Shown piece after piece: positions 1,196 to 32,717 of a stretch of DNA of 64,000 nucleotides (the first letter of the stretch is position 1; every line of letters begins with the position of its first letter). Source of the DNA: a virus. The position numbers and the translations under genes are program-made. The DNA is taken from the IMG/VR virus record IMGVR_UViG_3300047457_001149, positions 1-64,000 of that record; one strand, 5' to 3'. The notes below the pieces were generated by a model. That model did not search any database. It was not told the origin of the DNA and worked only from the letters and a program-made list of their open reading frames with translations.

Positions 1196-1690
1196 TTAGT
1201 CCGTCGTTGCCCGAGCTTTGACAGGCTCGCTCAATAGTTCCATCCCGACGTCTCCCAGCCGCCCCACGAAAGGCGAAGCGACAAGGCCCACCCCTCCACG
1301 AAGAAGGGCGGCGGGCCGTTCTTCCTCTGACGCCGAGAGCACATTAGCGCCCAAGAACGCGGCCGGGAGCCCGATGGAGACAACCTTTTGAAGAATTCCG
1401 GGACCGATGTACGCCCCTTTTAAGTAGTTGCCGAGTGCTTTCGGGACGCTCTTGGTCTTCTTGTACTGAGCTTGCAGAGCTTCAAAGAGCGACACGGGGC
1501 TGCCAAGGTGCATGTCTCGGAAAAAGTCACCAATCCCCAAACCAGCGCCTACAGCCTTGTTGTAGGCGCCGGGCGCCGTCGGAGTGTGCGCGCGATCTCT
1601 AAAAAGGTCTTGGAGCCCATACCTTCGAAAGGTTCGGCTCATCGCGGCGATCTTTACGCCGTCAAGTCGCTCTTCAAACCTAGAACGCAC
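1196..1690 (-). CDS. Hypothetical protein with glycine-rich hydrophobic segments
   Basis: 164-aa ORF overlapping the end of the RNAP subunit gene; VKIAA near the N-terminus; GAGLGIG and GGVGLV segments. Confidence 0.65.
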   Translation of the reverse strand: MRSRFEERLDGVKIAAMSRTFRRYGLQDLFRDRAHTPTAPGAYNKAVGAGLGIGDFFRDMHLGSPVSLFEALQAQYKKTKSVPKALGNYLKGAYIGPGILQKVVSIGLPAAFLGANVLSASEEERPAALLRGGVGLVASPFVGRLGDVGMELLSEPVKARATTD

Positions 1691-3479
1691 CGGCCGCTCC
1701 GTGGTGTAGCTCTGCGCCGTAAGCGTAGGCAGGCACCGGATGCGTACCGTGGAGGTCGCTGACCTCGCCGAACTGCGCCGCTTCCTGCAGCGTGTTCTTC
1801 AGGTAGCGGTGGGCGAGGCGCGCCATCCAGTCACTTTCCAGGAGGGGGTTCATGGTGAACGGCTTCATCACGAACTCTACCTGAGGAATGCGCTTGTTGA
1901 TAGCGACGTCGTGCACGCCTTGCTCTTTCAGGCTCTTAGCTAGCGCCGGGGTGATCGGTGTGCCTACCGTGTGGTGTAGCACCTCTTGGCCCAGGCGGTG
2001 CCCGACGGCGTTGTCGACAGACACGCGGGTGGCGTCCTTGTGGTACGCGTCTCGAAAGGCGTTGTAGTTGATGATGTCGCCCTTGAGAAGCTCGGGGTGA
2101 TCTGGGTCGGCTTCGAGCAGGCGCACGTGGTTGATCTCGGACTTCGCCAAGAGTTCGACGTGCCGCCGGTCCAGGTTGACGCCCTCGCCCTTGTAAAGGT
2201 TGTGGACCGCGTCGACGAAGTAGGCCCGCCCCGCGCCCAGACCTTTGGCGGCGACGACCTTCGCCGGGTGCGGGACGCCGTCTGTCATGGCGTCGCCGAC
2301 CTCGACCCCTTGCCCGACCGTGACCTTCACGTTGAGATCCGGCGCGGCGTAGATCTTCTTCGTGTCGACGTGAATGTAGTGGCCGCCCTGCGGAGCTTTC
2401 TCGATCTTCTTCACAACGCCGGTGTTCGGAGCCAGCACCGCTTCGTACTTGAACGCCTTGGGGATGTCGAGGAGCTGACGGACTCCCTTCAGGCCCGTGA
2501 GCTCCTTCACCTCGCCCTTGACCGTAAGCGTTCCGTGGCGAGAGGACAGCGCCATCTGCGTGAGCGGCTCCGCCATCGCTTGCGCGGAGCGCACGCCGAC
2601 GGTCATGCCCATGGCGTGGAGGTGCCCCTTCTCATTGTGCCCCTGGCACATTTGGCAGACGCCTTTGGTCGCGGTGCAAGTCATCGGCGAGCGAACGAGG
2701 ATCTGAGGGACGTTCTTGGCCTTGAGCTGCTGGACGATCTGCGGCGTGATGGCGGTATTACGAGCGAGTCCGGCCGAGTCTTGCGAGAAGCGGTCGAGGA
2801 TGTGCGCGTCGTCGACGGACATCTTTACGCCGTTGTGCGTGCCGCAGTCGTGCGTCGTCACCACGTTGGCGATCATGTTGTTGACGAGCACCTTCGCCAT
2901 CTCGCCGGGCTCGGAGACCGAGATACGCGCGCGCACTTCGTTGTAGCGCACCTCTGGTCCGGACATCCAATACTGCGCGGGCGTGAGTCCTTCTGAATAA
3001 GAGCGATCGATGAGGTGCGGCATGATCCCTCGCTTCGGGTCGTCCGTCGCGAGCGGCGTGGCCACGATCTTCATGAGCTGCGCGGCATTACCGCGCGCGC
3101 CGGAGAGCGCCATGTGCGTCATGGACCCGGGGTGATTCTTCGTGAGCGAGAGCATCTCGTCCTGCGCGTCCGTGATCACCTTGTTGCGCGCTGTCCGGTC
3201 AGTGAGCTTCTCCAGCTTCGCCAGCGCCGGCTTCACGATCGCGTCCCGCATCTTGTAGTCGGGTTCGATGTCGTCCAGCCCGACCGAGATGCCTTCGAGG
3301 GTCGCGATCTCGTCTCCCCGTCGCTTGAGAGCGAGCGCGGTGTGGACGTACTTGGTGGGGTCTTTCCGGGCTAGCTCCACCACGTGGTCGTGCAACGCCT
3401 TTTTCGTGACAGGGCCCGAGATCTTGTATCCCTCGGGCATCACGTCGTTGATCAGGAATTGGCCGACGGTGGTGGGCAT
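1680..3479 (-). CDS. rpoC: Phage DNA-directed RNA polymerase beta-prime, C-terminal half
   Basis: Motifs TTVGQ, SGARG, SYSEGLT, DCGT, RSPMTC..GVCQMC (Zn site), AQAMAEPLTQMALSSRH (trigger loop) and RRHVELL match bacterial RpoC regions E-H. Confidence 0.93.
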   Translation of the reverse strand: MPTTVGQFLINDVMPEGYKISGPVTKKALHDHVVELARKDPTKYVHTALALKRRGDEIATLEGISVGLDDIEPDYKMRDAIVKPALAKLEKLTDRTARNKVITDAQDEMLSLTKNHPGSMTHMALSGARGNAAQLMKIVATPLATDDPKRGIMPHLIDRSYSEGLTPAQYWMSGPEVRYNEVRARISVSEPGEMAKVLVNNMIANVVTTHDCGTHNGVKMSVDDAHILDRFSQDSAGLARNTAITPQIVQQLKAKNVPQILVRSPMTCTATKGVCQMCQGHNEKGHLHAMGMTVGVRSAQAMAEPLTQMALSSRHGTLTVKGEVKELTGLKGVRQLLDIPKAFKYEAVLAPNTGVVKKIEKAPQGGHYIHVDTKKIYAAPDLNVKVTVGQGVEVGDAMTDGVPHPAKVVAAKGLGAGRAYFVDAVHNLYKGEGVNLDRRHVELLAKSEINHVRLLEADPDHPELLKGDIINYNAFRDAYHKDATRVSVDNAVGHRLGQEVLHHTVGTPITPALAKSLKEQGVHDVAINKRIPQVEFVMKPFTMNPLLESDWMARLAHRYLKNTLQEAAQFGEVSDLHGTHPVPAYAYGAELHHGAAGAF

Positions 3480-4303: not shown

Positions 4304-4833
4304 TATCGATGACTCCGTAGGTACCGCTTCATGTCATCCGCGTGCGCCTGATCCATCTGCGCGCCCTCTTGCGCCATGCCGTTCAGGGGGACGTCGTCGT
4401 CAGTGGCGCGGAAGAGCTTTGACCAGAGGCAGATGGTCTCTTCCTCGACCCGGAGGATGTGGTTGAACACCTCCCGCGCGTCGTCGAGGTGTACGCATGG
4501 CACGTCGCAGTGCTCCGCCGAAGCGTCGCCGCCAAGGGCCGTGATCTTCTTGTTGAGCGCGTAGATGCTCTTGCGCTCTTCCTCGATGTGCTCTTGGAAG
4601 TGCTCGTACACGCCGTCTCGGAAGAACTCACGCAGCTGATCTCCGTACGAGATGTACATCAACATCAGCGTGTACTTCTTGCACAGGATTTCCTTGAGGA
4701 GCTCCATGTGATCGCAGCCACAGTCGTCGGCGGCGTCGGCGGCGTGAGACAGCTCGGGCGACTTCATCGTCACCCGCATGACCTTTACCCCGTGCATGGG
4801 GCCGCCGAGCATGTCATCGAGAAAGGGGAACAT
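4303..4833 (-). CDS. Ferritin/bacterioferritin-like four-helix-bundle protein
   Basis: YEHFQEHIEEE...KITALGG, LRVEEE and DQAHADD pattern typical of the ferritin-like fold. Confidence 0.7.
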   Translation of the reverse strand: MFPFLDDMLGGPMHGVKVMRVTMKSPELSHAADAADDCGCDHMELLKEILCKKYTLMLMYISYGDQLREFFRDGVYEHFQEHIEEERKSIYALNKKITALGGDASAEHCDVPCVHLDDAREVFNHILRVEEETICLWSKLFRATDDDVPLNGMAQEGAQMDQAHADDMKRYLRSHR

Positions 4834-7800
4834 GGGGGTCCTCTTCGTCCTCGTCTACGCCGGTCAAGTGCTCCGGCGGGAAATAGGATAGCGCCAACTC
4901 GGGGGAGGTACTAGAGAACGCCGCCGGGAGAGACTCGCCCAGGCTGTAATTGTCCGCCTCGGTGTCTTCGGCTTGCTTGGTGTTCTTGACCTCGATGGCG
5001 TCGGTCATTTTGAGCTCGCCGCGACGCCACGCCGCCAGCACGTCCTCCCGGTTCTTGAAGGTTTTCACGGGGCCCTTTGCGGCCGTGGCCTTTGACGCGT
5101 GGGTGAAGCCGATGATCGCCTCGTGCTGCGGGAAGGCTATGAGCTTGTTCCGCTGCTGGTCCGCCAGCAGGAGGTTGGTCATGGTCATGTTCTTCGCGTC
5201 GGTCACCGCGTCGGGGGTCACCGGCACGTGGACTTGCAGCGTGTCCCCGTCGTAGTCGAGGTTCATGCCGGTCTCGATGAACGGTGACACCCGCAGGGTC
5301 TTGCCCTTAACCGGCTTGGCGTAGGCCGCGATGATGCCCCAGCGGTGCAGGGTGGGCGCCCGATTGATCCAGACCGGACGTTCGCTGGTCTCCTCCAGCA
5401 TCGCTTGGTGCGCAGCCGGGTCCTTCTTCGTCACCATCTCGCGCGCCTGCAGCGCCGGGTAGCCCTTGCGGATCAGTCGGGCGACGATCAGCTTGTCGAG
5501 CATCTGCCAGAGCATCTGCTCAGGGATGCCGACCTGGTCCATGTTCAGGTTGGCGTCCGGCACGGCCGTCCCGCGCCCGGACACGTCCTGGGTGTGGCGC
5601 ATGAGCTTCCGCTGAAAGAAGCCGCCCTTCGGAGTCCCGACGCCCGCGACCGTAGCCAAGAAACCCTTGACCTTTTGCTGCTGCAGCTTCGCGTCCGCCG
5701 GCAAGGCTACGCCGTAAAGCTCCTCGACCTTGTTGTAGACGTCGAGGCGGTGCTTGCCGCGATCGGACTCCACGGCGGTGCGCTGCAGCGTGTCGCGCGA
5801 GTCCATGAGCTGCCCGTAGAGCTTGTTGGCGTCCGCCACCATCAGCTGCGAAGGGTCCTGCACGCCGGGGAGGATCGGGCGGAACACCGGCGGAATCACG
5901 GGGACCTTGCTGATGATGTACGCGTTCTCGGGGCGAAGATTGTTCTTCTTCAGCGCCTCCAGGTACTTGACTTGCTTCACGAGGTCGTTGAGCGCCGGAC
6001 CCTTGGCCGTGCGCATCTGATCTCGGAGCGTCTGGAGCTTCGAGTCCACGTTGATCTTCGAGAGCTCGCTCTTGAACCAAGCTCCGCCGTGATCGTGAAT
6101 CGCCTGCTCGTACTGCCGCTCGGTCATGTTGAGCAGGCGCCGCACCGGCTCCTTGAACACCGGGCTCGGGATCGGCTCGTGCAGATCGATGTGCGAGTAG
6201 AGCGTCCCCTGGTTGCCGCCGGTCTTCAGCGGGTCGAAGAGACCGCCCTTCTCGGGGCGCAGGTTCTTCGCCACGATGGTCTTGTTGTTCTCGATGCTGC
6301 CGGCGCTGCGCTTCATCACGTCGGCGTCGGTGAGCGGCAGGAGGGACATCTTCGAGCCGCGCCTGTCGACGCGGATGCCGGCGCCCTCCAGCATGGCGGT
6401 GAACTTGTTAAAGGCGAAGGACGGCTTCGGGTTCGGGAGCGGCATGCCGGTCTGGACGGCCTTCCAGAACTCGTCGTTCTTCTGCCCCTTCACCGTCGAC
6501 GCCTCACGGAGAAAGTTGCGGGCGTTGTGCGCGAGGAGCGCGTCGAACTCCATCTTGCCGATGCCCTTGGCTGAGTCGTCGCCGCCGGTCTTCATCGGCT
6601 GCTCATTGAGGTCGTACGGCCCGACGCCGTGCCCGGCGAAGTTCGTGTCGGTCGACTTGAAGAGCTTGTAGATGAACTGGCGCCCGACGAGGACGCCCTT
6701 GCCGTCGGCGCCGCTGATCTTGCGGTTGAGCACCGGGTCGAAGAGGTGCTCCTTGTCCTTCACCCCGTGCGTCTGCATGAGCTCGCGCGCCCACTTTACG
6801 GCGTTGTGCCCCGCCGCGTTGTCATAGACGATGGGCTTGCCGGTCTTCTCGGCGACCTTCGACACGGAGGTCTCGATGATCTGCGCCGGGTTGATGCGGC
6901 TGACAACACCGGCGGAGGTGAGCAGGAGATCCAGCGGGCGACCTTGCTCGTCGCGGAGCATCTCGTGGTCCGGAACGATCTTCGAGACCACGCCCTTGTT
7001 GCCGTAGCGACCGGCCAGCTTGTCGCCGATCTGCATCTGCTCGTGCGTCCGCACGAGGATGGTGATCTGCGAGTTTGTCCGAACGACGTCGATCACCTCG
7101 CCAGGGGCCCCGTGGTCCCAGGACAGCGCCACCTCCTTGTACGGCTTGGAGAGCGCTTTCGAGATCCGCCCCAACATGGCGTCTGTGCCCGCGATCGTCT
7201 GCTTGGTCAGCCCGAGCACTAGCGGCTCTTTGGCTGTGACCTTGGACCCCTTCTTGATGACGCCGTCATTGTCTAGCTTGCCGTACGCCTCCGGCGTGTA
7301 CTTCGTGCCGTAGTACATCCGGTGCTTCTCTTTGTTGAGCTCGATCTGCGAGGAGAGCGGATAGACCTCGCGATACATGTGCTCGCTGGTGAGCCGCTTC
7401 GAGCACGTCTCCGAAATGACGACGGCGTCGTTCGAGTTGAAGCCGTAGTAGGGCACGTAGCCGACGAGCAGGTTCTTCCCGAGCGCGAGCGTGCCGTTCT
7501 TGGTGTAGTTCGACTCAGCCAGTCGCTGGCCTTCCTTGACGGTGTCACCCGCCTTCACCTTGATGTCGTGGTGCAGGTAGGTCTTTGAGGGGAAGGGGAA
7601 GAACTGGTGGTAGGGGACTTTGACGAGGCCCTTGTCGTCGGCGGCGGCCGTCTTCTCGTTCTTGTGATGCGTGTCGATATGCTGCTGGAGGTGATTCCAG
7701 TCCTTGAAGAACCGCCGGTTTGCGAAGCGCACAGTCGGCGAACTGAATTCCTCAGTGTTGCGGTGGAACGCTTCGGCCTCTTCAGGCGAGTGCCCAACGA

Positions 7801-9784
7801 TGAACTTGACGTCGGTCGTTTTCCAAGGGGCTTTAAGATCCAGGTCGCCTTTCGCATTGACCCGCTTCTGCTTGTCGTAGGCGTAGATGAGGCCGTCGTG
7901 GCGAGTCCCCACGAAGAAGTCGAGCGAGTCGCCGTCGGGTCCGGTGTAGCCAGGGAGGTGGCCGTAGTCGGCGGGGGTCGGGTACTTGTTGCCGGGGACC
8001 AGGTAGTCCTTCTTGATCTCAATGTTGAACGTGAAGGGGCCGAGCTTCTTCTGCTCGATGACGGGACGATCTTCTGCCTTCTTCTCCGCGTGCGGCCGGA
8101 TGTAGACGTAGTCCTTGTCGATCTTCGCCACCGTCCCGCTCACCGGCGCCTTCGGCACGATCATGTGCCCGTACACCTGTTCGAACGAGTGCCCCTCCGG
8201 AAGATGCGAGCGCACCTGAACGAGCGGCGCCTCGCGGTCCAAGAGCGGCAGTGCCTGCGTCCCCATCTTCGATCCCATGATGGCGCGGTTGCCTTGGATC
8301 GAGTGGATGAAAGGGATCAGCGTCGTCGCAGGCGAGTAGATGTGCGACAGGTGGTTGAGCTGGTGGGTGACTTTGCTCGCGTCGACCTTCGCCTGCTCGC
8401 CGTTGTGAAAGACGTCCACCTTCCCGACCATCTGTTGGTGCGGGAACGCCACGGTCATGCGGCTTAGATCGCCAGACCGGATGTACTCATCCTTCCCGGT
8501 CTTCACGTTTCGCATCACCGTGTACAGGTTCCCCTTGTCGTCTCGGTGCGCCGCGAGCGTCGCGCGGATGTCGACGCCTGAGTGCGAGCTCTCGGGCGTG
8601 CGGATAGGGTCCAACGCCCCGAACTGGGTGTTGTGGATCATGCGCGCGTCGAGCGGGATGGCGCGGTCGCTTGGAATGCCGCCCTCCCCGAGGCTCGTCA
8701 CCTTGACCGAGTGATCGAGGATCTCCATCGGGTTGATGCCCGTAGGCACCGCCGACAGCGATGACACCGTCAAAAACTTTCGGATGGAGTCAGAGAACGG
8801 CGCCGGACGGAGGGCGTCGCGGATCACGCTCTTGCCGGTGAACGCCATCTTGGCCTTGGGGGACCACGCGCGCGCCGTCAGGCGAATCCGCTCCGCGATG
8901 AAGTCGTCCATCGCGTGAAAGGTCTTGAAAGTGAGCGAGTCGGTGTCGTCGGGGGCGGCTTCGCCCTTGTGCACCTGGACGATCTTCTTTGCGGCGGCGA
9001 GCAGCGCCTCTGGCGTCACCTTCTCGTGCGCGTGCCCGAGCGTCGCTTGCGTCACCTCTGGGTCAATCGTCGCGATGTCGTACCGCTTCTTGATCGCCTG
9101 GACCTTCTCCTCTTGCGTCGCTCCGGGCTTGATGAGCGCCGGGTGCTCCAACTTCGTGTAGAGCTTCGAGATCGTCGACTCGACCTGGTGTCCGTGTTCG
9201 CGGTGGTTGGCGTCGGCGAGCCCTTGCCCGAGGTGCTTGGCGATCTGCTCGTGGCTCGTCCCGATCCCGCGCAGTACGGCGTAAAGAGGGAGGTTGGACG
9301 TGCCGTACTGGAGGTGGAAGGTGCCCTTGGCGTCGTTGAAGACGACGTCGAAGTTCTTTCCTCGACCGAGGTTGAAGACGGTTTTTAGCTCGCCGTTGTC
9401 CGCGCGCTGGGTGTAGACGCCCGGCTTGCGCCGCAGCTGGTTGGCAACTTGGTACTCGTTGCCGTCGGAGATCATCGTGTGGCGCGACGTGAGGAAGGGG
9501 ATGTGCGCGAGCGTGAAGTTCTTCGCGGTGTCGATGACCTTACCGTCGGCGCCCTTGAGAACAAGCGTCCCTTTGACCGGCTCGTTGAGCGACGTGCCCT
9601 TCATGAGCGCGTTGTATTCGTCAGACGGCGTGAAGTCCTGGGCGTGCACCTTCACGTCTTGCAGCTCCAGCGTCCGTCCCTTGAGATCGAGCGGGAACGC
9701 GGCGGTGAGCGCTCCCACCGTCTTCGTGTGGAGCTTCGCTCGGAGCGTCGCGGCGTCCGTTAGTACGGGCGTGAGGTTCTGCAT
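4814..9784 (-). CDS. rpoB: Phage RNA polymerase beta subunit fused to N-terminal half of beta-prime, with inserted PPase-like domain
   Basis: RpoB motifs QLRRKPGVY, DPIRTPES, NRAIMGSKM, GFNSNDA, GDKLAGRYGNKGVVS, GKMEFDAL; then RpoC motifs PEKGGLFD, PVIPPVFRP, NRAPTLHR and catalytic NLDYDGD (~5243-5263). Confidence 0.95.
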   Translation of the reverse strand: MQNLTPVLTDAATLRAKLHTKTVGALTAAFPLDLKGRTLELQDVKVHAQDFTPSDEYNALMKGTSLNEPVKGTLVLKGADGKVIDTAKNFTLAHIPFLTSRHTMISDGNEYQVANQLRRKPGVYTQRADNGELKTVFNLGRGKNFDVVFNDAKGTFHLQYGTSNLPLYAVLRGIGTSHEQIAKHLGQGLADANHREHGHQVESTISKLYTKLEHPALIKPGATQEEKVQAIKKRYDIATIDPEVTQATLGHAHEKVTPEALLAAAKKIVQVHKGEAAPDDTDSLTFKTFHAMDDFIAERIRLTARAWSPKAKMAFTGKSVIRDALRPAPFSDSIRKFLTVSSLSAVPTGINPMEILDHSVKVTSLGEGGIPSDRAIPLDARMIHNTQFGALDPIRTPESSHSGVDIRATLAAHRDDKGNLYTVMRNVKTGKDEYIRSGDLSRMTVAFPHQQMVGKVDVFHNGEQAKVDASKVTHQLNHLSHIYSPATTLIPFIHSIQGNRAIMGSKMGTQALPLLDREAPLVQVRSHLPEGHSFEQVYGHMIVPKAPVSGTVAKIDKDYVYIRPHAEKKAEDRPVIEQKKLGPFTFNIEIKKDYLVPGNKYPTPADYGHLPGYTGPDGDSLDFFVGTRHDGLIYAYDKQKRVNAKGDLDLKAPWKTTDVKFIVGHSPEEAEAFHRNTEEFSSPTVRFANRRFFKDWNHLQQHIDTHHKNEKTAAADDKGLVKVPYHQFFPFPSKTYLHHDIKVKAGDTVKEGQRLAESNYTKNGTLALGKNLLVGYVPYYGFNSNDAVVISETCSKRLTSEHMYREVYPLSSQIELNKEKHRMYYGTKYTPEAYGKLDNDGVIKKGSKVTAKEPLVLGLTKQTIAGTDAMLGRISKALSKPYKEVALSWDHGAPGEVIDVVRTNSQITILVRTHEQMQIGDKLAGRYGNKGVVSKIVPDHEMLRDEQGRPLDLLLTSAGVVSRINPAQIIETSVSKVAEKTGKPIVYDNAAGHNAVKWARELMQTHGVKDKEHLFDPVLNRKISGADGKGVLVGRQFIYKLFKSTDTNFAGHGVGPYDLNEQPMKTGGDDSAKGIGKMEFDALLAHNARNFLREASTVKGQKNDEFWKAVQTGMPLPNPKPSFAFNKFTAMLEGAGIRVDRRGSKMSLLPLTDADVMKRSAGSIENNKTIVAKNLRPEKGGLFDPLKTGGNQGTLYSHIDLHEPIPSPVFKEPVRRLLNMTERQYEQAIHDHGGAWFKSELSKINVDSKLQTLRDQMRTAKGPALNDLVKQVKYLEALKKNNLRPENAYIISKVPVIPPVFRPILPGVQDPSQLMVADANKLYGQLMDSRDTLQRTAVESDRGKHRLDVYNKVEELYGVALPADAKLQQQKVKGFLATVAGVGTPKGGFFQRKLMRHTQDVSGRGTAVPDANLNMDQVGIPEQMLWQMLDKLIVARLIRKGYPALQAREMVTKKDPAAHQAMLEETSERPVWINRAPTLHRWGIIAAYAKPVKGKTLRVSPFIETGMNLDYDGDTLQVHVPVTPDAVTDAKNMTMTNLLLADQQRNKLIAFPQHEAIIGFTHASKATAAKGPVKTFKNREDVLAAWRRGELKMTDAIEVKNTKQAEDTEADNYSLGESLPAAFSSTSPELALSYFPPEHLTGVDEDEEDPHVPLSR

Positions 9785-10108: not shown

Positions 10109-10519
10109 CTACAACCGCGGCACGCCTCGGGGTCTCGCCTCCGCTTCGTTTGGTCCGTCTTCGGGCTCTTCCCAAGTGACCGCCGCGTACCGCTCGCCGC
10201 GCTCGTTGTTGAACTCGTCGTACGCCAGTCGAAACGCCTCGCCACGAGTGGCGTTGCGAAGCTTGTTCAGCAGCGTGACGTATTCGCGATGCCGCGTGTG
10301 CCGGCACGTGATGTCCGACTCGTCAGGCAGGACGATCTCTCCGTCTTCCACCAGCTTCTTACACCGGTGGCAGCCTTGCCATGGCCGGAAGATCAAGAAG
10401 GTGTCTTGCTGCACCTTCAGCTTCTTCTTGCGCCCCTCCGCCGGATCGGCAAACCCGGGACGGGGGCCGCGCATGCCCTCGGCGTTGGCTTCCAGCTGCT
10501 TCTCGTACCAGTCACTCAC
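10109..10519 (-). CDS. Hypothetical protein (CxxC...CxH)
   Basis: 136 aa, coupled to the putative portal gene by a GTGA overlap. Confidence 0.7.
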   Translation of the reverse strand: MSDWYEKQLEANAEGMRGPRPGFADPAEGRKKKLKVQQDTFLIFRPWQGCHRCKKLVEDGEIVLPDESDITCRHTRHREYVTLLNKLRNATRGEAFRLAYDEFNNERGERYAAVTWEEPEDGPNEAEARPRGVPRL

Positions 10520-12249
10520 TGCGGACCTCCGCCCATCGCCTGCGCCTTCATCTGCGCCATCTGGTCCTGCTGCATCTGCTCAACTCGCTGCACGACCACC
10601 GAGTACATCACGAAGTCTTCGCCCTTGAGCGAGTCCATGCGCGAGCGGCGCGAGCCCGGATCCATCTGCACCATCTGCTGCGCGATCTGGTCGGCCTGCG
10701 CGACGATCTGCTGCTGGTCATAAGCCATGCCGCCCTGGCTCTGCAGCGCCTGCTGCTGGGCCTGGTTCGACAGCGACTGCTGGAACTTCTGCATCGCGAT
10801 TTCGGTTTCTTTTTGCGCCCGAGCGTCAGAGAGCGTGTCTTCCTTTCGCCGGCGGCGCTCGTGATCGAGGTCGATGTTGAGCATGTCGGCGACGGTCGTG
10901 TTGCTGACGAGCTGCTGCTGCCAGAGCTGCATCTTCAGCTGCTTGTTGTCGATGTCGTCGATCATCTTGAAGTCCGCGAGCCGCATGTTGATCGGCTCCC
11001 AGTCCATGAACGCGGCGACCTTTCGCTCGATCCATTGGACCACCGCGTTCAAGTTCTCGATGTGCGTCTGCAGCTGGTTTTCAACCATGCGCAGCGTAAT
11101 CTCGCCGCGCGTCTGCCCGAGGCCCCCGGCGAGGAACTCCATGGGGACGCCCATGGAGAGCACGATGTTCTTCTCCGCCTCTTGCAGCTCGCCGAGCGTC
11201 AAGAGCGCCCGCCCGTTGCCGCCCATCTCTTGGACGTTGATCGGCACGGGAGAGAACTGGATGCGCAGAGGATCGCGGCGGAATAGCCGGATGTTGCGCT
11301 CCATCTCCTCGCGCCATCGGTCGAGAGGGATCGTCGAGATCGGGTCGCCCTGCCCGCTGGCGGCCGCCGGGTGGATGATCCGCATCGGCGTAATGTGTTC
11401 GAGCGCGATCGCCTCGTTCGCTTTACGCAGTACAGCGGTGAAGAGAAAGTTCTTGATCGCGCTCGTGATCGGCGGGAAGCCCCACTGCGATTGCACGCCG
11501 GCGGGGCCCGGCATCTTCATGTGGTAGAGCGACTCGTCGGCAAACCGAAAGGTCTTCTTTTCCTGCATCGCACGCAGGATTTCCATAGGCATGTGGTTGA
11601 TCAGCGTGCGGTTGCCGGCGCGCACCTTGGCGATGTCATCACGCGGGATCTGGTAGTAGTAGACCGACTCGCCCGTGACGCGATTGTGCTCAATGTCGAT
11701 CAGCTTCGGGTCCCAGCGGATCAGCTTGATCTTGTTGGCCTTCTTCAGCTTGTAGTCCTCGACGCGCGAGGTCACGTCCTTCCGGCGGCATTGCCGACAG
11801 TTGTGCGTGAACGAGCACTTCGCGAGGTTGAACTTGTAGTCAGCGGCGGCGACGTCTTCCTTTGTCCCGCAGAAGGGGCATGTCAGCTCCCGCTTGATCG
11901 GCTCGTACACCGAGATGAACGCGTTGCCGTAGAGCCAGACGTCGTAGCTCACCTGAGTCAAGAAGCCCTTCAGGCGGATCGACTCCTCGAAGAGCTTCTT
12001 GTGCCTCGTCTTCTCTTCGTCCGACGTCGACTCGTAGATGAACCGAGTGATCGGGTATTCGCCGAACTTCCGCACGACGCCGTAGATGTGCGCGGAGTGG
12101 AACCCGAGATACTCGGCCCACTTGAACAGGTCCTTCAGCTTTCGCGGAACGAACCCCGTCAAGTAGTCGAACATGGGGTTGGCGTGCGATGCTCCGCGCG
12201 CTCCCATCATGTCGAGAGGGGTCATTCCGTCCGGTCCGTAAGTCGTCAT
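10516..12249 (-). CDS. Putative portal protein with Zn-ribbon insertion
   Basis: ~577 aa; portal-like pattern (VWLYGNAF, LYHMK...WGFPPI, IVLSMGVPMEFL); CPFC/CRQC insert; Gln/Met-rich tail; GGAG RBS before ATG 12249. Confidence 0.65.
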   Translation of the reverse strand: MTTYGPDGMTPLDMMGARGASHANPMFDYLTGFVPRKLKDLFKWAEYLGFHSAHIYGVVRKFGEYPITRFIYESTSDEEKTRHKKLFEESIRLKGFLTQVSYDVWLYGNAFISVYEPIKRELTCPFCGTKEDVAAADYKFNLAKCSFTHNCRQCRRKDVTSRVEDYKLKKANKIKLIRWDPKLIDIEHNRVTGESVYYYQIPRDDIAKVRAGNRTLINHMPMEILRAMQEKKTFRFADESLYHMKMPGPAGVQSQWGFPPITSAIKNFLFTAVLRKANEAIALEHITPMRIIHPAAASGQGDPISTIPLDRWREEMERNIRLFRRDPLRIQFSPVPINVQEMGGNGRALLTLGELQEAEKNIVLSMGVPMEFLAGGLGQTRGEITLRMVENQLQTHIENLNAVVQWIERKVAAFMDWEPINMRLADFKMIDDIDNKQLKMQLWQQQLVSNTTVADMLNIDLDHERRRRKEDTLSDARAQKETEIAMQKFQQSLSNQAQQQALQSQGGMAYDQQQIVAQADQIAQQMVQMDPGSRRSRMDSLKGEDFVMYSVVVQRVEQMQQDQMAQMKAQAMGGGPQ

Positions 12250-12279
12250 CGTCACTCCGAGATGAGAGAGGAGAGCCGC

Positions 12280-14328
12280 GTGCTCATCACAGGCAATCTG
12301 CTGCGCAATTCTACACCGGTGTTTCGGATTGAGGCACCGGAAGACTCGTATTTGGCCCGCGCATGGGGAGGTGTGTACGCCGACGGCGCCTGGCTGTTCC
12401 CGGCGTTCTACCCCTTCGCCCGCTGGGCGTTTGAAGACATCCGCAAGTTTTACCCAAAGGCTTCTTGGGACGCTACCGCCCTCAAGTTTCTACAAGACGT
12501 GCGGGACGCCGACGCTTCGTGGGCAAAGGCCTCCGAGCGGTGGGTTGGCGCCGCCACCGCCGAGCCCGTGGCTGACGAGGCCTTCTTCGCCAAGGGCTTT
12601 ACGCCGTATCAGCACCAGATGTACGGCATCCGGCGCCTGACGACTTGGTGGCGCTCATTTCTCCTCTGGGAGATGGGAACCGGCAAGACGCGCACGGCGA
12701 TCGACGCGCTCCGACTTTTGCGGGAGCAGGGTAAGTTCCGGAAGGCGCTGGTCATCGGCCCGCCCGTGGTCCTCGACACTTGGCGGCGAGAGGTCGCCAA
12801 GTGCTCCGGGGGCGCGTGGCGGGCGGTCGTCTGGGACGGCTCGCGCAAGGCGGCGGAGGCGGCGCAAGAGGCCGACGTCGTCCTCGCCTCTTACGCCCGG
12901 GTCCGAATCGAGCGCGAGCGCGCGCTGGCCGCGGCTAAGGAGCTGTCCGTCACGGACGAGGTCCGCGCGCGCTACCGCATGCCGCTACTCGCGCCCGAAG
13001 CGCGGGAGCAGCTAGAGTGGGAGCGGCAGCACCCGCTCTATCAACTGGATTACGACACCATCATCGCCGACGAGAGCCACTACCTCGGCAACTGGAAGAG
13101 CGGCCAGACGCAGGCAGCGATCGAGCTCTCGGCCAAGGCGGTCCGGCGGTACTGCTTGACCGGAACTCCTGGCGACGACCCGCGCAAGCTCTACGCCCAA
13201 CTCTACTTCCTGTCCCCCGCGCTAATCCCGCTGTCTTACGCGAAGTTCGAGGAGCGCCACCTCGTTCACTCAAAAAAGAACAAGCATGTCGTCGTCGGCT
13301 TCCGCTTCCTGAACGAGCTCAACGAGCGCGTCAACAGCGTGGCGAGCCGGATGAAGAAGGCCGACTGCCTCGACCTCCCGCCAGTCACGGTGTCGGACCT
13401 TTACTACGACCTCGGACCCAAGCAGCGCGCTCGCTACAACGAGCTCGTGATGGAGATGCAAACCTCCGTCGAGCCGGTCCTCAACTACATCACCCCGGCG
13501 TCCTTGAAGACCGAAGAGCTTCCTGATCGCGCCGCGCTCAAGCTTCCGCATGGAGCTGCGCGCGTCAACAAGCTGCTCCAAGTGCTGTCAGGGTTCTTGA
13601 TCCTCGGCGCGGACTACTCGATCTGCGACGCCTGCGTCCACATGGAGGCTTGCGCGGAATCGCGAATCCGACCATACACCAAGAAGTGCAAGGTTATTCA
13701 GAGCGCCCCTGAGCGACAGGTTCTCCGCGACGTCGAGAACCCGAAGCTGGACCTTTACAAGGAGCAGCTTGAAGTCATTCTCGAAGGCGACGCGACGAAC
13801 AAGGTCATCGTCTGGGCCAACTTCACGGAAGAGCTCGACGACCTGGAGCGCGCCACCAAAGAGATGGGCTATGGGTACGTCCGCGTCGACGGCTCTAACA
13901 CCAACAAGATCGGAGAGATCTCAGACAAGTTTCAGACAGACGAGAACTGCCGCGTCTACATCGGTCAGGTGCGCACCGGCATCGGCGTGACCTTGACCGC
14001 CGCCAACTACACCATCTTCTACTCCTTGCCGTGGGACCCGCTGCAGTATCGGCAAGCGATGGACCGCAACAACCGCCCGGGGCAGAAGCGGGACATGACC
14101 GTCTACCGGCTGTTGTCGTCGGACGCCACCTGGGCTCTCGACCGGTATGTCGCCCAAGTCCTCACCTTCAAGGAGACCATCGCGCTCACTCTGACGGAGC
14201 TCATCGCGTGCGCCTCGTGCGACCGGCAGCAGCACTGCGCCGCGAAGGAGATCCTCCCCTTTCGAGAGAACTGTAAGTATGCTGCCAACGTCGCTCGTCC
14301 CGTCGCGGACGTGGAGGTAATCGAATGA
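12280..14328 (+). CDS. SNF2-family (SF2) helicase
   Basis: EMGTGKT, DESH, LTGTP, GIGVTLTAA, QAMDRNNRPGQ; probable GTG start 12280 after GAGGAG (the track's 11371 start is an antisense extension over the portal). Confidence 0.9.
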   Translation: MLITGNLLRNSTPVFRIEAPEDSYLARAWGGVYADGAWLFPAFYPFARWAFEDIRKFYPKASWDATALKFLQDVRDADASWAKASERWVGAATAEPVADEAFFAKGFTPYQHQMYGIRRLTTWWRSFLLWEMGTGKTRTAIDALRLLREQGKFRKALVIGPPVVLDTWRREVAKCSGGAWRAVVWDGSRKAAEAAQEADVVLASYARVRIERERALAAAKELSVTDEVRARYRMPLLAPEAREQLEWERQHPLYQLDYDTIIADESHYLGNWKSGQTQAAIELSAKAVRRYCLTGTPGDDPRKLYAQLYFLSPALIPLSYAKFEERHLVHSKKNKHVVVGFRFLNELNERVNSVASRMKKADCLDLPPVTVSDLYYDLGPKQRARYNELVMEMQTSVEPVLNYITPASLKTEELPDRAALKLPHGAARVNKLLQVLSGFLILGADYSICDACVHMEACAESRIRPYTKKCKVIQSAPERQVLRDVENPKLDLYKEQLEVILEGDATNKVIVWANFTEELDDLERATKEMGYGYVRVDGSNTNKIGEISDKFQTDENCRVYIGQVRTGIGVTLTAANYTIFYSLPWDPLQYRQAMDRNNRPGQKRDMTVYRLLSSDATWALDRYVAQVLTFKETIALTLTELIACASCDRQQHCAAKEILPFRENCKYAANVARPVADVEVIE

Positions 14329-15011
14329 AGATCGAACTGGAACACTCGGACATCTGCAAGGCCCTCGCCCACTACCTGCGCACCAAGAACTTCGCGGTCG
14401 ACGCTGACCCGCGTAACTTCGTGTTCAAGGAAGAGGAGGCAGGCGAGCTCTTGGTCGTCGTGAAGAACGGCGACATGATCACCAACGCCCCGCCCCTTAC
14501 GCCGGAGTCTCTCCGCGCCGCCGTCGTGCCGCCGGTCAACCCGGCGCGGCCCCCGGTTCCGCCCGCCAAGCCGCACCCGGCCGCGCGCGTTTCTCCCAAG
14601 GCGCGCATCTTCGCGAAGAACGATCCTTTCGAGCCCGTGCCGCCGCCTCGGGAGCAGGTTCCGGCGCCGCGCCTGAAGGTTCTCGACCCGCAGGCCGCGC
14701 GCTCGCCCGCGCTGCACTCCGCGCCCGCGCATCCGGGGATGCCGGCGCCGCGCGAGGTCATTCAGAACTTCGGGGCCGAAAAAAAGGGCGAAGAGCTGGT
14801 AGAAGAGCCCGCTCAGCCCGTTGTGGCTCCTACGACGCCGTCGGGGCTCATCATTGACCCCGCAGCCATGTCCGAGGACGACCAGCGGCTGTTCCAAGAC
14901 ATTCTCTCGCGGTCGGCGGCCGCGACAGAAGCCGCTGTAGCTGTTCCCGCCGAGGTCCCTGCTAGAGGCGCCGACATCGACATGATGGGCGCCGAGGAGT
15001 TTGTGGAGTGA
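14325..15011 (+). CDS. Hypothetical proline-rich protein
   Basis: ATGA overlap with the helicase, GGAGG RBS. Confidence 0.7.
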   Translation: MKIELEHSDICKALAHYLRTKNFAVDADPRNFVFKEEEAGELLVVVKNGDMITNAPPLTPESLRAAVVPPVNPARPPVPPAKPHPAARVSPKARIFAKNDPFEPVPPPREQVPAPRLKVLDPQAARSPALHSAPAHPGMPAPREVIQNFGAEKKGEELVEEPAQPVVAPTTPSGLIIDPAAMSEDDQRLFQDILSRSAAATEAAVAVPAEVPARGADIDMMGAEEFVE

Positions 15012-15814
15012 CAGAAAAGAGACGAATCGAAATCCCTGACAGCATGCGCGACCCCGTCCTCCCGGGCGGGGCCTTCTCGCACTCCCAGTACGAAGCCTTC
15101 AAGGCTTGCGGCCGGGCGTACGAGTTCAAGTACGTGAAGCAAGTCTCGTCGCCCCCGTCTCCCGCGATGGCGCGGGGGACGGCCATCCACGCGGGCGTCG
15201 AGACGGCGCTCCTCGCCAAGAAGGGCGGACAGCCTGTGTCCCCCGAGGCGATGCTGGCCGTGGTCAGCGACGCCTTCGACAAGGCGAAGGAGCAGATCAG
15301 TGAGTGGGGCGACGAGGAGCCGGGAAAGCTGAAAGACACTTCGCTTTCTCTTTACCGGGTATACCACGCCGCCGTCCTGCCCAAGATCACTCCGCTGGAG
15401 ATCGAGGAGCCCTTCGTAGTGAAGGTCGGCTCGGTCACGGTGCGGGGGATCATCGACCTCGTCGACCACGAGAAGGAGGGGCCGGGGGACCCCGGCAAGA
15501 TCGTGGTCGCAGACCTGAAGACGAGCGCGGCCAAGTGGTCTCAGAGCGACGTCGACAGGGACGCGCAGCTGTCCCTCTACACGGCCGTCAAGGGCCAGAT
15601 CAACGCGCGGATCGACAACCTGGTGTCGACCAAGACCCCGGCCTACCACCGGCTTTCGACTACGCGCGGGGCCGCCGACCATCGTAACCTCACCGAGGAC
15701 TACGAGGAGACGGCAGACTTCATCAAGCGGGGCGTCTTTCCGATGGCTCCGATGGACTCGTGGAAGTGCACGCCCAAGTGGTGCCCGTACTGGGGGAGCT
15801 GCCGTGGCCGCTAA
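15008..15814 (+). CDS. PD-(D/E)XK RecB/Cas4-like exonuclease
   Basis: GTAIH, GIIDLV, ADLKT, QLSLY; one N-terminal plus three C-terminal Cys (Fe-S staple). Confidence 0.88.
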   Translation: MTEKRRIEIPDSMRDPVLPGGAFSHSQYEAFKACGRAYEFKYVKQVSSPPSPAMARGTAIHAGVETALLAKKGGQPVSPEAMLAVVSDAFDKAKEQISEWGDEEPGKLKDTSLSLYRVYHAAVLPKITPLEIEEPFVVKVGSVTVRGIIDLVDHEKEGPGDPGKIVVADLKTSAAKWSQSDVDRDAQLSLYTAVKGQINARIDNLVSTKTPAYHRLSTTRGAADHRNLTEDYEETADFIKRGVFPMAPMDSWKCTPKWCPYWGSCRGR

Positions 15815-15983: not shown

Positions 15984-16360
15984 AGGACGAGAGCCACGTC
16001 TTCTACGAGGACCGCTTTCACAAGCGGATCGTGCACTTTCTTTTCACGTCCTACTTCGCCGCTCCTCACGATCTACGAGAAGTTGCGGCGGAGTTTTGGG
16101 CGTGTTATCAGCATCTTCTAGAAGGTGGCACGGTGACAGAGTTGCCGATCCACCTCATCAACAGGCGTCTCGCCGTGAGCGTGATCAAGAGGATCCTTCG
16201 CGGCGAGCTGGTGCAATTCGACGACGAAAGAGAGAAAGACCATGACGACGGAGAACACGGAGAACAAGGTGGAGAAGAAGGCCAAGAAGGCGGAGCCCAA
16301 GCCCGCCAAGGAGCCCAAGGCGCCGGCGGCGGCCGCGCCGTCCGGCCAGTTCGAGTATGA
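15947..16360 (+). CDS. Hypothetical protein (start uncertain; 3' end overlaps ParB gene)
   Basis: Protein-like composition fills the 15984-16241 gap. Confidence 0.5.
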   Translation: MSKLRQRALRALEDESHVFYEDRFHKRIVHFLFTSYFAAPHDLREVAAEFWACYQHLLEGGTVTELPIHLINRRLAVSVIKRILRGELVQFDDEREKDHDDGEHGEQGGEEGQEGGAQARQGAQGAGGGRAVRPVRV

Positions 16361-29212: not shown

Positions 29213-29284
29213 GCCCTCCGTCCTGGAGGCACCGCCCCGCGCCGTTCGGCGCGTCCAAAGGGGCGGTTTTCTTTGGCCGTCAAT
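29209..29284 (+). terminator. Repeat B copy 2
   Basis: As 28164-28238; abuts the stop of the convergent terminase gene. Confidence 0.8.
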
Positions 29285-31007: not shown

Positions 31008-31665
31008 TCTGTCGTGATCGGCGGTCCATCCGCTCCGTCACGTACAGGAGGCACTCGATCAGACGATGCACCTGGGCGTCGACGGCGGACTTTGGCTCGC
31101 CCTGCAGCATACGCCGTAAAGCGTCCAAAGGCATCTTCTCGACCGTCTGCCACTCTTTGCGGGCGCGCGCCGGGAGATCTTTCTCCCCGACGAGCAGGGT
31201 GTCGAGCACGTCCTGGCAAAAGGCGAGCTCCTTCGGCGCCAGCGCGAGACCTTCGTCGTGCAGCACTACGGCGATGGCCGGGTCGATCGTGTCGGGGTCG
31301 AAGCCGTCGTCCTCGGTGAAGGTGTGGTCGGTGAGCGCGGTGAGCTCGCGGACCACCCAGCAAAGCTGCTCGGGCGTCGGGTGGTGGATCGCCTCGCCAG
31401 AAGCGGAGACGCCGTCGCAGGCCAAGGCCAGGGCGAAGAGCACGTCGTGGTCGTAGGTCCAAACCGGGCCAGTGACGACCGTCTGCGCGCCGAGCAGCTT
31501 GGCCATGAGCTCGTCAGTCGGCGGAATCTTCGCCCGCTCCAGCTCGATACGAATCGTGTCCGGCTCCCACGCAGGAAGGGTCAGTCCCAGAACCTTTTGC
31601 GCCGCGACCCAAGCGACGGACATCTCGACGTGCGGGTCGCGCAGGATTTCGGACGCGGCAGACAT
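30982..31665 (-). CDS. Hypothetical protein
   Basis: 227 aa in an operon upstream of the terminase. Confidence 0.75.
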   Translation of the reverse strand: MSAASEILRDPHVEMSVAWVAAQKVLGLTLPAWEPDTIRIELERAKIPPTDELMAKLLGAQTVVTGPVWTYDHDVLFALALACDGVSASGEAIHHPTPEQLCWVVRELTALTDHTFTEDDGFDPDTIDPAIAVVLHDEGLALAPKELAFCQDVLDTLLVGEKDLPARARKEWQTVEKMPLDALRRMLQGEPKSAVDAQVHRLIECLLYVTERMDRRSRQNADLQHSI

Positions 31666-32717
31666 CAGCCCGCGACCACCGGGACGCCAGCGGCCTTGAG
31701 GTGCCGGGCGAGGTCCTGCTTCATGTCCGCCGGGAGGGTGTTGATCACTTCAGCAACCTTCTGCGCGTCGACCCGACCGCCGGAGGCGATCTCGGAGACG
31801 ACATCAGGCCCGAGCGCGTCAGAGAAGAACGACGTCGGCAGCGACGCGAGCTTCGCGGTGTCGACGAGCTGCCCGCCGAGATCGAGCATGTTGGCAGCCA
31901 GCTTCACGGTCGAGTTGAAGACCGCCGCCACGGGATCCGGCACTCGACGGTCGTAGTGCTTGTCGAAGCCGGCCATGGCGTCGAGGTCTCCGATCGCTTC
32001 GGCGAGCTTCACGCGCGTCACCTGGTCGCGAAGGCCGGCGCGGTCTTCGATCACCGCTCGGGCCATCTTGTTGAAGGCCTCCTTCACTTCCGCCTGCTTT
32101 GCCATCGTCGCGCGCGACGCCAGCGTCTCCGCGAGCTTCTGGCGATCCGTCACGGCCAGCCCCGACCACTTGAGCGACTCGGGCTTGAGCGAGACGTCGT
32201 GGCGCTCCGCCGCCTCCGCGAGCTTCGCGAAGGCGTTGGCGCGCGTCTCCGGCCGCATCCGGCGGTACTGCTCAAGCAGGCGCTCTTCGGCGACCTTGAC
32301 CTCTTCGGCGTCGCGGACCGGGTAGAGGCGCTCCTCCGGGAAGATGCACTCGTCGGGATCGAACTCCGCGACCTTCTCTTCGACCGGCGCGAGGTAGTCG
32401 ACTGGGATGCCGTACGCGTCGAGGGCCTCCTCGATCTCAGCGACGACCTCCTTCGGCACCAGCGGCACGCGCCGCCCCTCAGAGGCGATCTTGGTCTGCT
32501 CCGCCCCGTGCTTGGCGTAGAGGTACGAAACGACCGCGTGCTCCGGCGTGTGCACCGGGAAGCTCGATCGATCCGGCCACGCGAAGGCGGACGCGGGGAT
32601 CTGGTCTCGCCGATCCTCGAACGAGGCGTGCTTGACGAGGTCATACGCGCCGGGATGGCGGTGGAAGAGCATCTGAAGGGTCGAGTGGCCCGGGTCGTTG
32701 TAGAGGTCCATCGTCAC
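31665..32717 (-). CDS. Putative head-assembly protein, very rich in K-x-A motifs
   Basis: VKHAS, TKIAS, EKVAE, VKVAE, AKLAE, QKLAE, AKQAE, NKMAR, VKLAE, VKLAA, AKLAS, QKVAE; duplicated FPV/YPV module. Confidence 0.7.
   Translation of the reverse strand: MTMDLYNDPGHSTLQMLFHRHPGAYDLVKHASFEDRRDQIPASAFAWPDRSSFPVHTPEHAVVSYLYAKHGAEQTKIASEGRRVPLVPKEVVAEIEEALDAYGIPVDYLAPVEEKVAEFDPDECIFPEERLYPVRDAEEVKVAEERLLEQYRRMRPETRANAFAKLAEAAERHDVSLKPESLKWSGLAVTDRQKLAETLASRATMAKQAEVKEAFNKMARAVIEDRAGLRDQVTRVKLAEAIGDLDAMAGFDKHYDRRVPDPVAAVFNSTVKLAANMLDLGGQLVDTAKLASLPTSFFSDALGPDVVSEIASGGRVDAQKVAEVINTLPADMKQDLARHLKAAGVPVVAG

Follow-up and report, generated by a model that had tools for sequence, protein, structure and literature searches.

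The large RNA polymerase (RNAP) chain of an uncultured freshwater phage carries, nested in its beta part, a domain with the fold of a family I inorganic pyrophosphatase (PPase). The phage is represented by IMG/VR record IMGVR_UViG_3300047457_001149, a 90-kb sequence with 63% G+C whose estimated completeness is about half (52%). The first 64 kb of this record (64,000 nucleotides) is the stretch we analysed, referred to below as the window. The open reading frame (ORF) at 4814-9784 on the minus strand translates without a stop into 1656 residues. Pfam matches to RNA_pol_Rpb2_6 (E 3e-43) and Rpb1_2 (E 2e-19), together with Rpb2_2, Rpb2_3 and Rpb1_1, identify the chain as beta joined to the N-terminal half of beta' that holds the catalytic loop. 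Among cultured phages, Salmonella phage Arash and Vibrio phages D69, D181, and D148 are the nearest relatives. The chain is 35% identical to Arash gp206 across 87% of its length, and a megablast search with the gene found no match in the phage collection. The gene and the parts of it that surround the insertion are the following:

4814..9784, minus strand: RNAP large chain of 1656 aa, a fusion of beta with the N-terminal half of beta', containing the catalytic NLDYDGD; orthologue of Arash Gp206.
8093..8152, minus strand: upstream strand(s) of the beta hybrid-barrel hairpin, residues 545-564; aligns up to Thermus beta 613 and is conserved in Arash and D69.
7646..8077, minus strand: InPase-type (family-I-PPase-fold) cassette, residues 570-713; supported by hhalign, AlphaFold2, VIA, Foldseek, and the dN/dS ratio.
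7511..7627, minus strand: downstream half of the hybrid-barrel motif, residues 720-758; aligns from Thermus beta 615, with weak matches to RnfC_N (barrel-sandwich-hybrid) and Peptidase_M23.

A first-pass annotation, made from the sequence alone, had placed a PPase-like insert at 7640-8090, between the two halves of the beta sandwich-barrel-hybrid motif (SBHM). That placement holds in the ORF translation, in the sequence strings it quoted, and in the alignment with Arash and D69, and its span is close to the exact cassette. The upstream flank KAPVSG..YIRP, which ends in YVYIRP, is encoded by 8093-8152. The downstream flank LVKVPY..VKAGDTVKEGQRLAES, which opens with LVKVPY..VKAGDTVKEGQ, is encoded by 7511-7627, and the insert between them contains DYGHLPGYTGPDGDSLDFFVG and TDVKF. 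The two flanks are separated by four residues in Arash and D69 and abut in Thermus beta (613 / 615). By alignment the insertion loop falls at about residue 614 of Thermus beta, which we take to be about residues 736-748 of the E. coli subunit. The RAxMGxxM motif lies 65 residues upstream of the insertion and the segment before the Rpb2_6 catalytic region lies downstream; both stretches reach the active site.

Assembly error can be ruled out for the insert, because independently assembled contigs bridge both of its junctions. One Logan contig (X4 record 11) spans 7148-8204 free of gaps with thirteen differences, and another (X3 record 5) spans 7601-8251 with two; each comes from an independent metagenome sequenced in another study. 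This answers the concern about misassembly at the junctions that the first-pass annotation had raised. The block of about 145 residues is absent from the alignment rows of Arash gp206 and its D69 orthologue, and a homologous insert is present, in frame and at the same place, in about forty metagenomic orthologues. Further along the gene, at 6964-7027, contig depth rose about tenfold in all four metagenomes examined. This peak is an artefact: the universal beta motif around GNKGVVS draws in rpoB contigs from unrelated organisms.

We assign the insert to the family I PPase fold and, within the InPase (PF18823) superfamily, to a divergent branch. When 1.8 billion representative proteins were searched with the insert by phmmer, InPase proteins other than RNAPs were recovered at E 1e-16 to 1e-3, and those matching at E 1e-16 to 1e-6 exceed the PF18823 cut-off themselves. 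Against solved family I PPases, phmmer matches to the insert were weak (E 0.1-0.3). Profile comparison with hhalign aligned the window-type RNAP inserts with canonical InPases over 134 columns at 99.7% (E 5.3e-26). When inserts and InPases were combined in one profile and compared with solved structures, the matches included the C-terminal InPase of a phage portal (9b41_L, 4e-12) and the PPases 4ecp (6e-5) and 1wcf (3e-4). Several cassettes from the same loop in relatives pass PF18823 outright, namely L008 (29.2 bits), L026 (36.9), the first copy in P0002 (45.7), L030 (107.3), and G003 (113.2). A PHROGs scan of the insert returned no family.

The predicted structure agrees with this assignment. 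A single-sequence AlphaFold2 model of the insert was unusable, with a predicted local distance difference test score (pLDDT) of 38.7. We replaced it with a model built on the alignment of inserts and InPases, with no templates, which reached a pLDDT of 87.6 and a predicted template modelling score (pTM) of 0.82. In a VIA search of structural representatives, this model matched eight family I PPases with Z scores of 6.0-8.0 (115-124 residues aligned, root-mean-square deviation 3.5-4.8), and the next fold scored 3.2. The top fifty Foldseek matches were all family I PPases (E 2e-3 to 2.5e-2, template modelling scores 0.36-0.47). In both searches the model shows the OB-like barrel and two helices that characterize family I PPases. 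Profile homology, predicted fold, and conserved residues thus all favour the family I PPase-like identity first suggested from the sequence alone.

The residues of the insert that correspond to the PPase active site are as follows:

8018..8020, minus strand: Glu589 in the strand-1 motif IEI, equivalent to the Glu of IE(I)PKG and to E. coli E20; E or D in all RNAP-embedded copies and InPases, aligned to IEIPKG of 4ecp.
7964..7966, minus strand: Tyr607 of DYG, equivalent to Y55 of E. coli PPase; invariant.
7919..7936, minus strand: Asp617, Asp619, and Asp622 of the metal-binding signature DGDSLD, equivalent to D65, D67, and D70; unchanged throughout the window-type clade, with DGDPLD/DGDPVD as the aligned counterpart in solved PPases.
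7805..7813, minus strand: Asp658-Val-Lys660, equivalent to D102 and K104; D/E and K invariant, aligned to EDVK of 3lo0.

The catalytic and PPi-binding set of family I PPases (PPi, pyrophosphate) comprises, in E. coli numbering, E20, K29, E31, R43, Y51, Y55, D65, D67, D70, D97, D102, K104, Y141, and K142. This set is incomplete in the insert, which keeps seven members (the equivalents of E20, Y55, D65, D67, D70, D102, and K104). Alignments of the RNAP-embedded copies show E589, Y607, D617, D619, D622, D658, and K660 to be invariant. The equivalent of K142 is uncertain, being either K694 of FKDW or none depending on the register; the window-type clade has its own conserved C-terminal helix here, FKDW..L..HID.H. 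The insert sequence DGDSLDF also departs from the PROSITE family I signature, which we take to be D-[SGDN]-D-[PE]-[LIVMF]-D-[LIVMGAC], with Ser at position four and Phe at position seven.

InPases have been described as having a metal site of four conserved acidic residues and as having lost the hairpin between strands 1 and 2 (Iyer et al. 2017, PMC5512222). In the insert the four acids are E589, D617, D622, and D658, with D619 in addition. The spacing from IEIKKD to DYG is 12 residues, against about 19 in the InPase consensus and 28 in the M. leprae PPase 4ecp, and the AlphaFold2 model has a mere loop between strands 19-25 and 41-49, where the hairpin would be. The domain is under strong purifying selection: compared with L003, the closest available relative, the insert has a ratio of nonsynonymous to synonymous substitution rates (dN/dS) of 0.09, against 0.24 in the remaining gene. 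In one relative, P0009, two copies stand in tandem; the Tyr and one Asp are gone from the first, and the second is intact. That the loss fell on a redundant copy argues for a catalytic reason to retain these residues in proteins with a single copy. In our reading, the insert is a complete InPase-type domain, probably active, in a reduced phage version.

Across relatives, the InPase is an optional, exchangeable cassette and not a fixed part of the polymerase. The flanks of P0044 are 100% identical to those of the window protein, and its site is empty (HAEKKGEEKNASDDKGL). The flanks of P0006 are likewise 100% identical, with an insert that is 63% identical; P0002 and P0003 have flanks about 72% identical and inserts 94% identical. 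Flank and insert identities therefore vary independently. Using a cassette-less query, we collected eighteen IMG/VR relatives; among these resolvable Arash-like RNAP genes, eight have an InPase in the loop (six distinct sequences) and ten do not. A search of viral contigs with P0044 found only relatives at no more than 78% identity. Contigs in other metagenomes match a flank as far as 7630-7648 or 8078-8088, beyond which their sequence is unlike that of the window, consistent with co-occurring alleles. The joints in metagenome X6, which skip 478 and 268 bases (side 28-30), fit other alleles and are too weak to count alone.

The distance between the flanks ranges from 4 to 534 residues among relatives. 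Besides a single InPase, the slot can hold a second one, a kinase-like P-loop domain, a stretch that resembles a glycine zipper, or uncharacterised modules. The kinase-like domain (AAA_18/AAA_33/RapZ_N, E 1e-5 to 7e-4, below cut-off) stands beside the InPase in P0004, P0015, P0016, and P0030, preceding it in some proteins and following it in others. The glycine-zipper-like module is found in the loop of P0043, P0016, and P0018, and P0007 has an unknown module of about 190 residues. In a maximum-likelihood tree of InPase domains (quick search, SH-aLRT), the RNAP-embedded copies fall into at least three lineages with well-supported branches separating them. One of these lineages (L030, L064, L065) consists of unambiguous Pfam InPases at 107-113 bits.

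Every one of the five complete genomes of the family encodes an InPase. In three of them it is confined to the RNAP; a fourth has an empty RNAP loop and encodes the InPase in a separate 417-aa ORF, and the fifth has it both within the RNAP and as a separate ORF. Stand-alone proteins of 417-449 residues, with an N-terminal InPase and an uncharacterised C-terminal half, are encoded in three complete or near-complete relatives (G002:C1:177209-177646, G016:C1:98148-98549, and G015:C1:118324-118755), where they add to or replace the RNAP-embedded copy. We also considered Arash gp23, annotated as a 'pyrophosphatase', as a separate InPase and rejected it, as it has no Pfam match and no match to InPases.

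Both borders of the cassette carry a Lys-x-Ala (K-x-A) motif, which is also found elsewhere in the window:

8075..8083, minus strand: Lys568-Lys-Ala570, K-x-A at the upstream cassette border; loose contig ends at 8078-8088.
7646..7654, minus strand: Lys711-Thr-Ala713, K-x-A at the downstream cassette border; loose contig ends at 7630-7648.
4817..4978, minus strand: C-terminal acidic tail of the RNAP chain, residues 1603-1656, starting at K1603-Q-A; absent from Arash and D69.
31665..32717, minus strand: candidate scaffold/internal head protein or protease substrate, 350 aa, two genes from the terminase; no PHROG function.

Among the window proteins, EK[TSK]A[AE] occurs only at the two cassette borders. 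In a set of fifty-two non-redundant RNAP-embedded InPase domains, K-x-A stands just upstream of forty-nine and just downstream of forty-eight; inside the domains its density is 0.23 per 100 residues. It is also found at junctions to other cassettes, for example as KTAA directly before the P-loop. Counting with gene calls based on third-position G+C content, we found that fourteen of the twenty lysines in the 350-aa protein lie in K-x-A, mostly as K-[VLQ]-A-[ES], when 2.9 would be expected (z 7.2, 0/1000 shuffles). The large terminase gene is 29280-31007. The K-x-A pattern of this protein is that of a scaffold cut at many sites, which makes it a candidate for one. In ten of twelve homologues examined, an acidic tail with a YFPPEH/FYPAEH-like motif follows a K-x-A, and the tail may be a cleavable targeting or docking peptide. 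The motif thus both recurs at module borders and marks a scaffold-like protein, as a putative cleavage site would. If the borders are head-protease sites, the InPase may be cut free, and we put forward such cleavage as a hypothesis suggested by the sequence pattern.

The neighbourhood of the gene resembles that in Arash, with the order portal, small ORF, RNAP common to both:

1680..3479, minus strand: beta' C-terminal half, the second RNAP chain, 599 aa; phrog_25354 at E 1.5e-39, BLASTP E 8e-41 to Arash gp216.
10516..12255, minus strand: portal protein, upstream neighbour as in Arash; BLASTP E 2e-102, 31% identity, length equal to Arash gp204.

Mass spectrometry of Arash virions placed Gp206 first in number of spectra (3516), and also detected Gp216 (beta' C-terminal half) together with a sigma factor and further enzymes; the authors gave carry-over of abundant proteins as an alternative explanation (PMC10585845). 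As the Arash orthologue is abundant in virions, the window phage most likely packages its RNAP too, by analogy, and the polymerase would then carry the InPase into the capsid and from there into the host.

Some side observations concern the surrounding DNA. A long plus-strand ORF at 11371-14328 overlaps the portal gene (10516-12255, minus strand). Its homology to helicases begins only at about residue 364, so the helicase probably starts near 12300; longest-ORF gene calls are misleading in the high-GC DNA of the window. Between the helicase and the DNA polymerase (23832-27230) lie an exonuclease (15008-15814, plus strand) and a ParB-like nuclease/partition protein (16242-17300, plus strand). 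In P0023, P0026, P0030, P0031, P0036, P0038-P0040, and P0042, inteins or homing-endonuclease domains (LAGLIDADG_3, Hom_end, Intein_splicing) lie elsewhere in the RNAP gene, which points to heavy mobile-element traffic in this gene.

On balance, we lean towards reading the loop as a cargo slot of a virion-associated RNAP and the InPase as a Mg2+-dependent pyrophosphate hydrolase that is delivered with it, either tethered or released. It builds on what the analysis shows directly, namely the nesting, homology, and fold of the domain, its conserved residues and the purifying selection on it, the polymorphism of the cassette, and the motif at its borders. The slot, in a surface hairpin of beta and bordered by K-x-A, would hold nothing, one or two InPases, a kinase-like domain, or other modules. 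On its way through the capsid into the host, the InPase would either stay tethered to the polymerase or be freed by the head protease at the K-x-A borders. In the host it would hydrolyse a pyrophosphate bond, with Mg2+ held by E589, D617, D619, D622, and D658. The most economical substrate would be the PPi produced by early phage transcription, and the likeliest job PPi removal, or hydrolysis of PPi-containing nucleotides, where that transcription starts. A similar role in clearing PPi for early transcription has been suggested for the InPases of packaged polyvalent proteins (Iyer et al. 2017, PMC5512222). More tentatively, the slot may be a general one, in which small enzymes (pyrophosphatase, kinase-like, and others) are swapped by recombination, ride in the virion RNAP, and are freed by a head protease of an undescribed Lys-x-Ala specificity; we consider this possible, at somewhat less than even chances.

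Several results weigh against the cargo reading. With respect to the domain, the window insert itself scores 18.3-18.8 bits against PF18823 (E 1.5e-3; gathering cut-off 26.8) and 12.1-16.0 bits, with 15.4 in a further scan, against PF00719, Pyrophosphatase (cut-off 23.5). A profile of the seven window-type sequences alone found no significant PPase among PDB sequences (portal 0.067, 1qez 0.6), and the sequence link to canonical PPases therefore runs via the InPases. Judged from these profiles, the window-type clade is a divergent branch of the InPase superfamily. The segment with K29, E31, and R43 is missing, D97 is replaced by Pro653, and Y51 is unconserved. The missing segment and the change at D97 mean that PPi may not be the substrate. 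By its residues, the insert retains the core that binds metal, and part of the shell that grips PPi is gone. We found no reported assay of any InPase in the literature. The genomes of Arash and D69 have no InPase, and the function is therefore dispensable. With respect to delivery, virion packaging of this RNAP family is known only for Arash. Searches for the head protease families PF03420 and PF04586 gave no match in the window's record (52% complete), in Arash, or in four complete relatives; a divergent protease may be present. Lastly, homologous borders owe their K-x-A partly to inheritance with the cassette and are to that extent not independent cases, and the motif also occurs in the buried, conserved RNAP core at residue 976.

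The first-pass annotation had proposed a simpler role, in which the polymerase pulls transcription forward with its own PPi-hydrolysing module. In this form, the domain would stay covalently attached near the secondary channel, where NTPs enter and PPi leaves, and would hydrolyse each PPi, making nucleotide addition irreversible and suppressing pyrophosphorolysis. The PPase fold with conserved active-site residues, an insertion between two stretches that reach the active site, at least three gains of an InPase at this loop, and a kinase-like nucleotide enzyme sharing the slot in relatives are all in keeping with such a role. It hinges on the geometry of the loop relative to the secondary channel, however, and host PPase normally keeps PPi low. 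Moreover, a polymerase with identical flanks exists that has no cassette, the InPase is a stand-alone protein in some relatives, and it is absent from the cultured ones. The K-x-A borders, for their part, suggest release. For these reasons we consider the role unlikely. The domain identity proposed in the first-pass annotation stands, while its transcription-pulling hydrolase looks too simple for a swappable cassette that lacks half of the canonical residues, has K-x-A borders, and occurs as a separate protein in relatives.

A second possibility, to which we give a still lower probability, is that the RNAP is only a vehicle for an injected counter-defence or host-takeover effector that cleaves pyrophosphate-containing nucleotides (alarmones, signalling nucleotides, or the NTP pool) and not free PPi. 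Phage polyvalent proteins and portal fusions are typical settings for InPases, and nucleotide-like substrates have been proposed for these domains by Iyer et al. (PMC5512222). The domain here lacks the hairpin that in canonical PPases closes over the PPi site, and conflict genes typically show presence/absence polymorphism, allele swapping, and tandem copies. Yet the conserved residues are those of PPi hydrolysis, and we recognised no defence-related partner domain in the slot of relatives.

It is quite improbable that the insert is catalytically dead and acts as a structural or ligand-binding module, such as a docking surface or a PPi or nucleotide sensor that regulates the RNAP. Such a module would be in line with the Pfam scores below cut-off, with the loss of about half of the canonical catalytic set, and with the lineage-specific inserts of RNAPs having so far been non-enzymatic (PMC2939025). 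Against it, the acidic cluster, the Tyr, and the Lys are invariant among copies that are 40-90% identical, the dN/dS of 0.09 indicates constraint, and it is a redundant tandem copy, in P0009, that has lost precisely such residues. Finally, though inteins do occur elsewhere in the RNAP gene of relatives (e.g. P0030, with LAGLIDADG_3, Hom_end, and Intein_splicing), we regard a chimeric-assembly artefact, an intein, or another self-splicing element as excluded, because independent contigs bridge both junctions, the frame is kept in about forty orthologues, Pfam finds no intein or homing-endonuclease domain in the insert, and its borders (AEDRP... and ...EKTA, then AADD) have neither the Cys/Ser start nor the His-Asn plus Cys/Ser/Thr end of an intein.

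The cargo reading can be set beside several known systems. The InPases of polyvalent proteins and portal fusions (PF18823; PMC5512222; C-terminus of portal gp19, PDB 9b41) belong to the same superfamily and have the same reduced, hairpin-less core and acidic residues. Their phage or virion context is alike, as is the proposed early role in PPi clearing or nucleotide processing, which here is an inferred function. They lie at the ends of the polyvalent protein or portal, however, whereas the window copy is nested in a loop of a multisubunit RNAP beta. The window-type clade also differs in having GPDGDSLD instead of GEDGExLD, TDxK instead of DETK, its own C-terminal helix, and a score below the Pfam cut-off. 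Family I PPases such as E. coli Ppa and M. tuberculosis Rv3628 (PF00719) share the fold (Z up to 8.0 over 115-124 residues, 15-20% identity). In comparison with them, the window insert is about thirty residues shorter, lacks the K29/E31/R43 hairpin, has D97 replaced, and fails the signature at two positions. They are also hexamers or dimers, and the window copy is a monomeric nested domain.

The lineage-specific inserts of bacterial RNAP (beta i4/SI1 and i9/SI2, beta' i6/SI3 in the nomenclature of Lane and Darst; PMC2939025) are likewise large, in frame, and placed in surface loops with the core fold intact. Those inserts are structural repeats (SBHM, BBM2) that are fixed per lineage (PMC2939025), whereas the insert described here has an enzyme fold, varies between near-identical genomes, and shares its slot with other modules. 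Arash Gp206 and Gp216 and their D69 homologues form the same re-partitioned RNAP, with the large chain next to the portal gene, but with a cassette-free loop of four residues in genomes that have no InPase.

PPases associated with polymerases have been proposed before, for the PHP domains of bacterial DNA polymerases (Aravind and Koonin 1998) and for the PPase subunit of Drosophila NURF (as cited in PMC5512222). The shared idea is a phosphoesterase beside a polymerase that removes inhibitory PPi, but those cases involve other folds or separate subunits and other polymerases, and none is nested in a multisubunit RNAP. In the InPase paper, the jumbo-phage survey, and full-text queries, we found no published InPase or other PPase nested in a multisubunit RNAP. 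This agrees with the first-pass annotation, which was not aware of any described RNAP-PPase fusion. What was already known is the domain family (PF18823) and the idea of PPi removal at a polymerase; the nesting of a PPase-type domain in a multisubunit RNAP is, as far as those searches reached, new. More broadly, we know of no multisubunit RNAP described with an enzyme domain nested in a core subunit, the known lineage-specific inserts being structural.

A natural RNAP with a PPase-fold domain offers a direct test of whether local PPi removal matters for transcription in vivo, helped by near-isogenic natural partners that have no cassette or another allele. Transcription in vitro already depends on added PPase. 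Because the loop tolerates from 4 to more than 500 inserted residues, it is a permissive site for engineering RNAP fusions. The InPase family, defined in 2017 and only computationally, would gain a member tractable for biochemistry. If the Lys-x-Ala borders are protease sites, they would represent a new route by which phages deliver helper enzymes and a new protease specificity. If the cargo reading is true, the injected RNAP of these phages would bring its own enzymes for nucleotide and PPi housekeeping, placing the strategy of polyvalent proteins inside a multisubunit RNAP.

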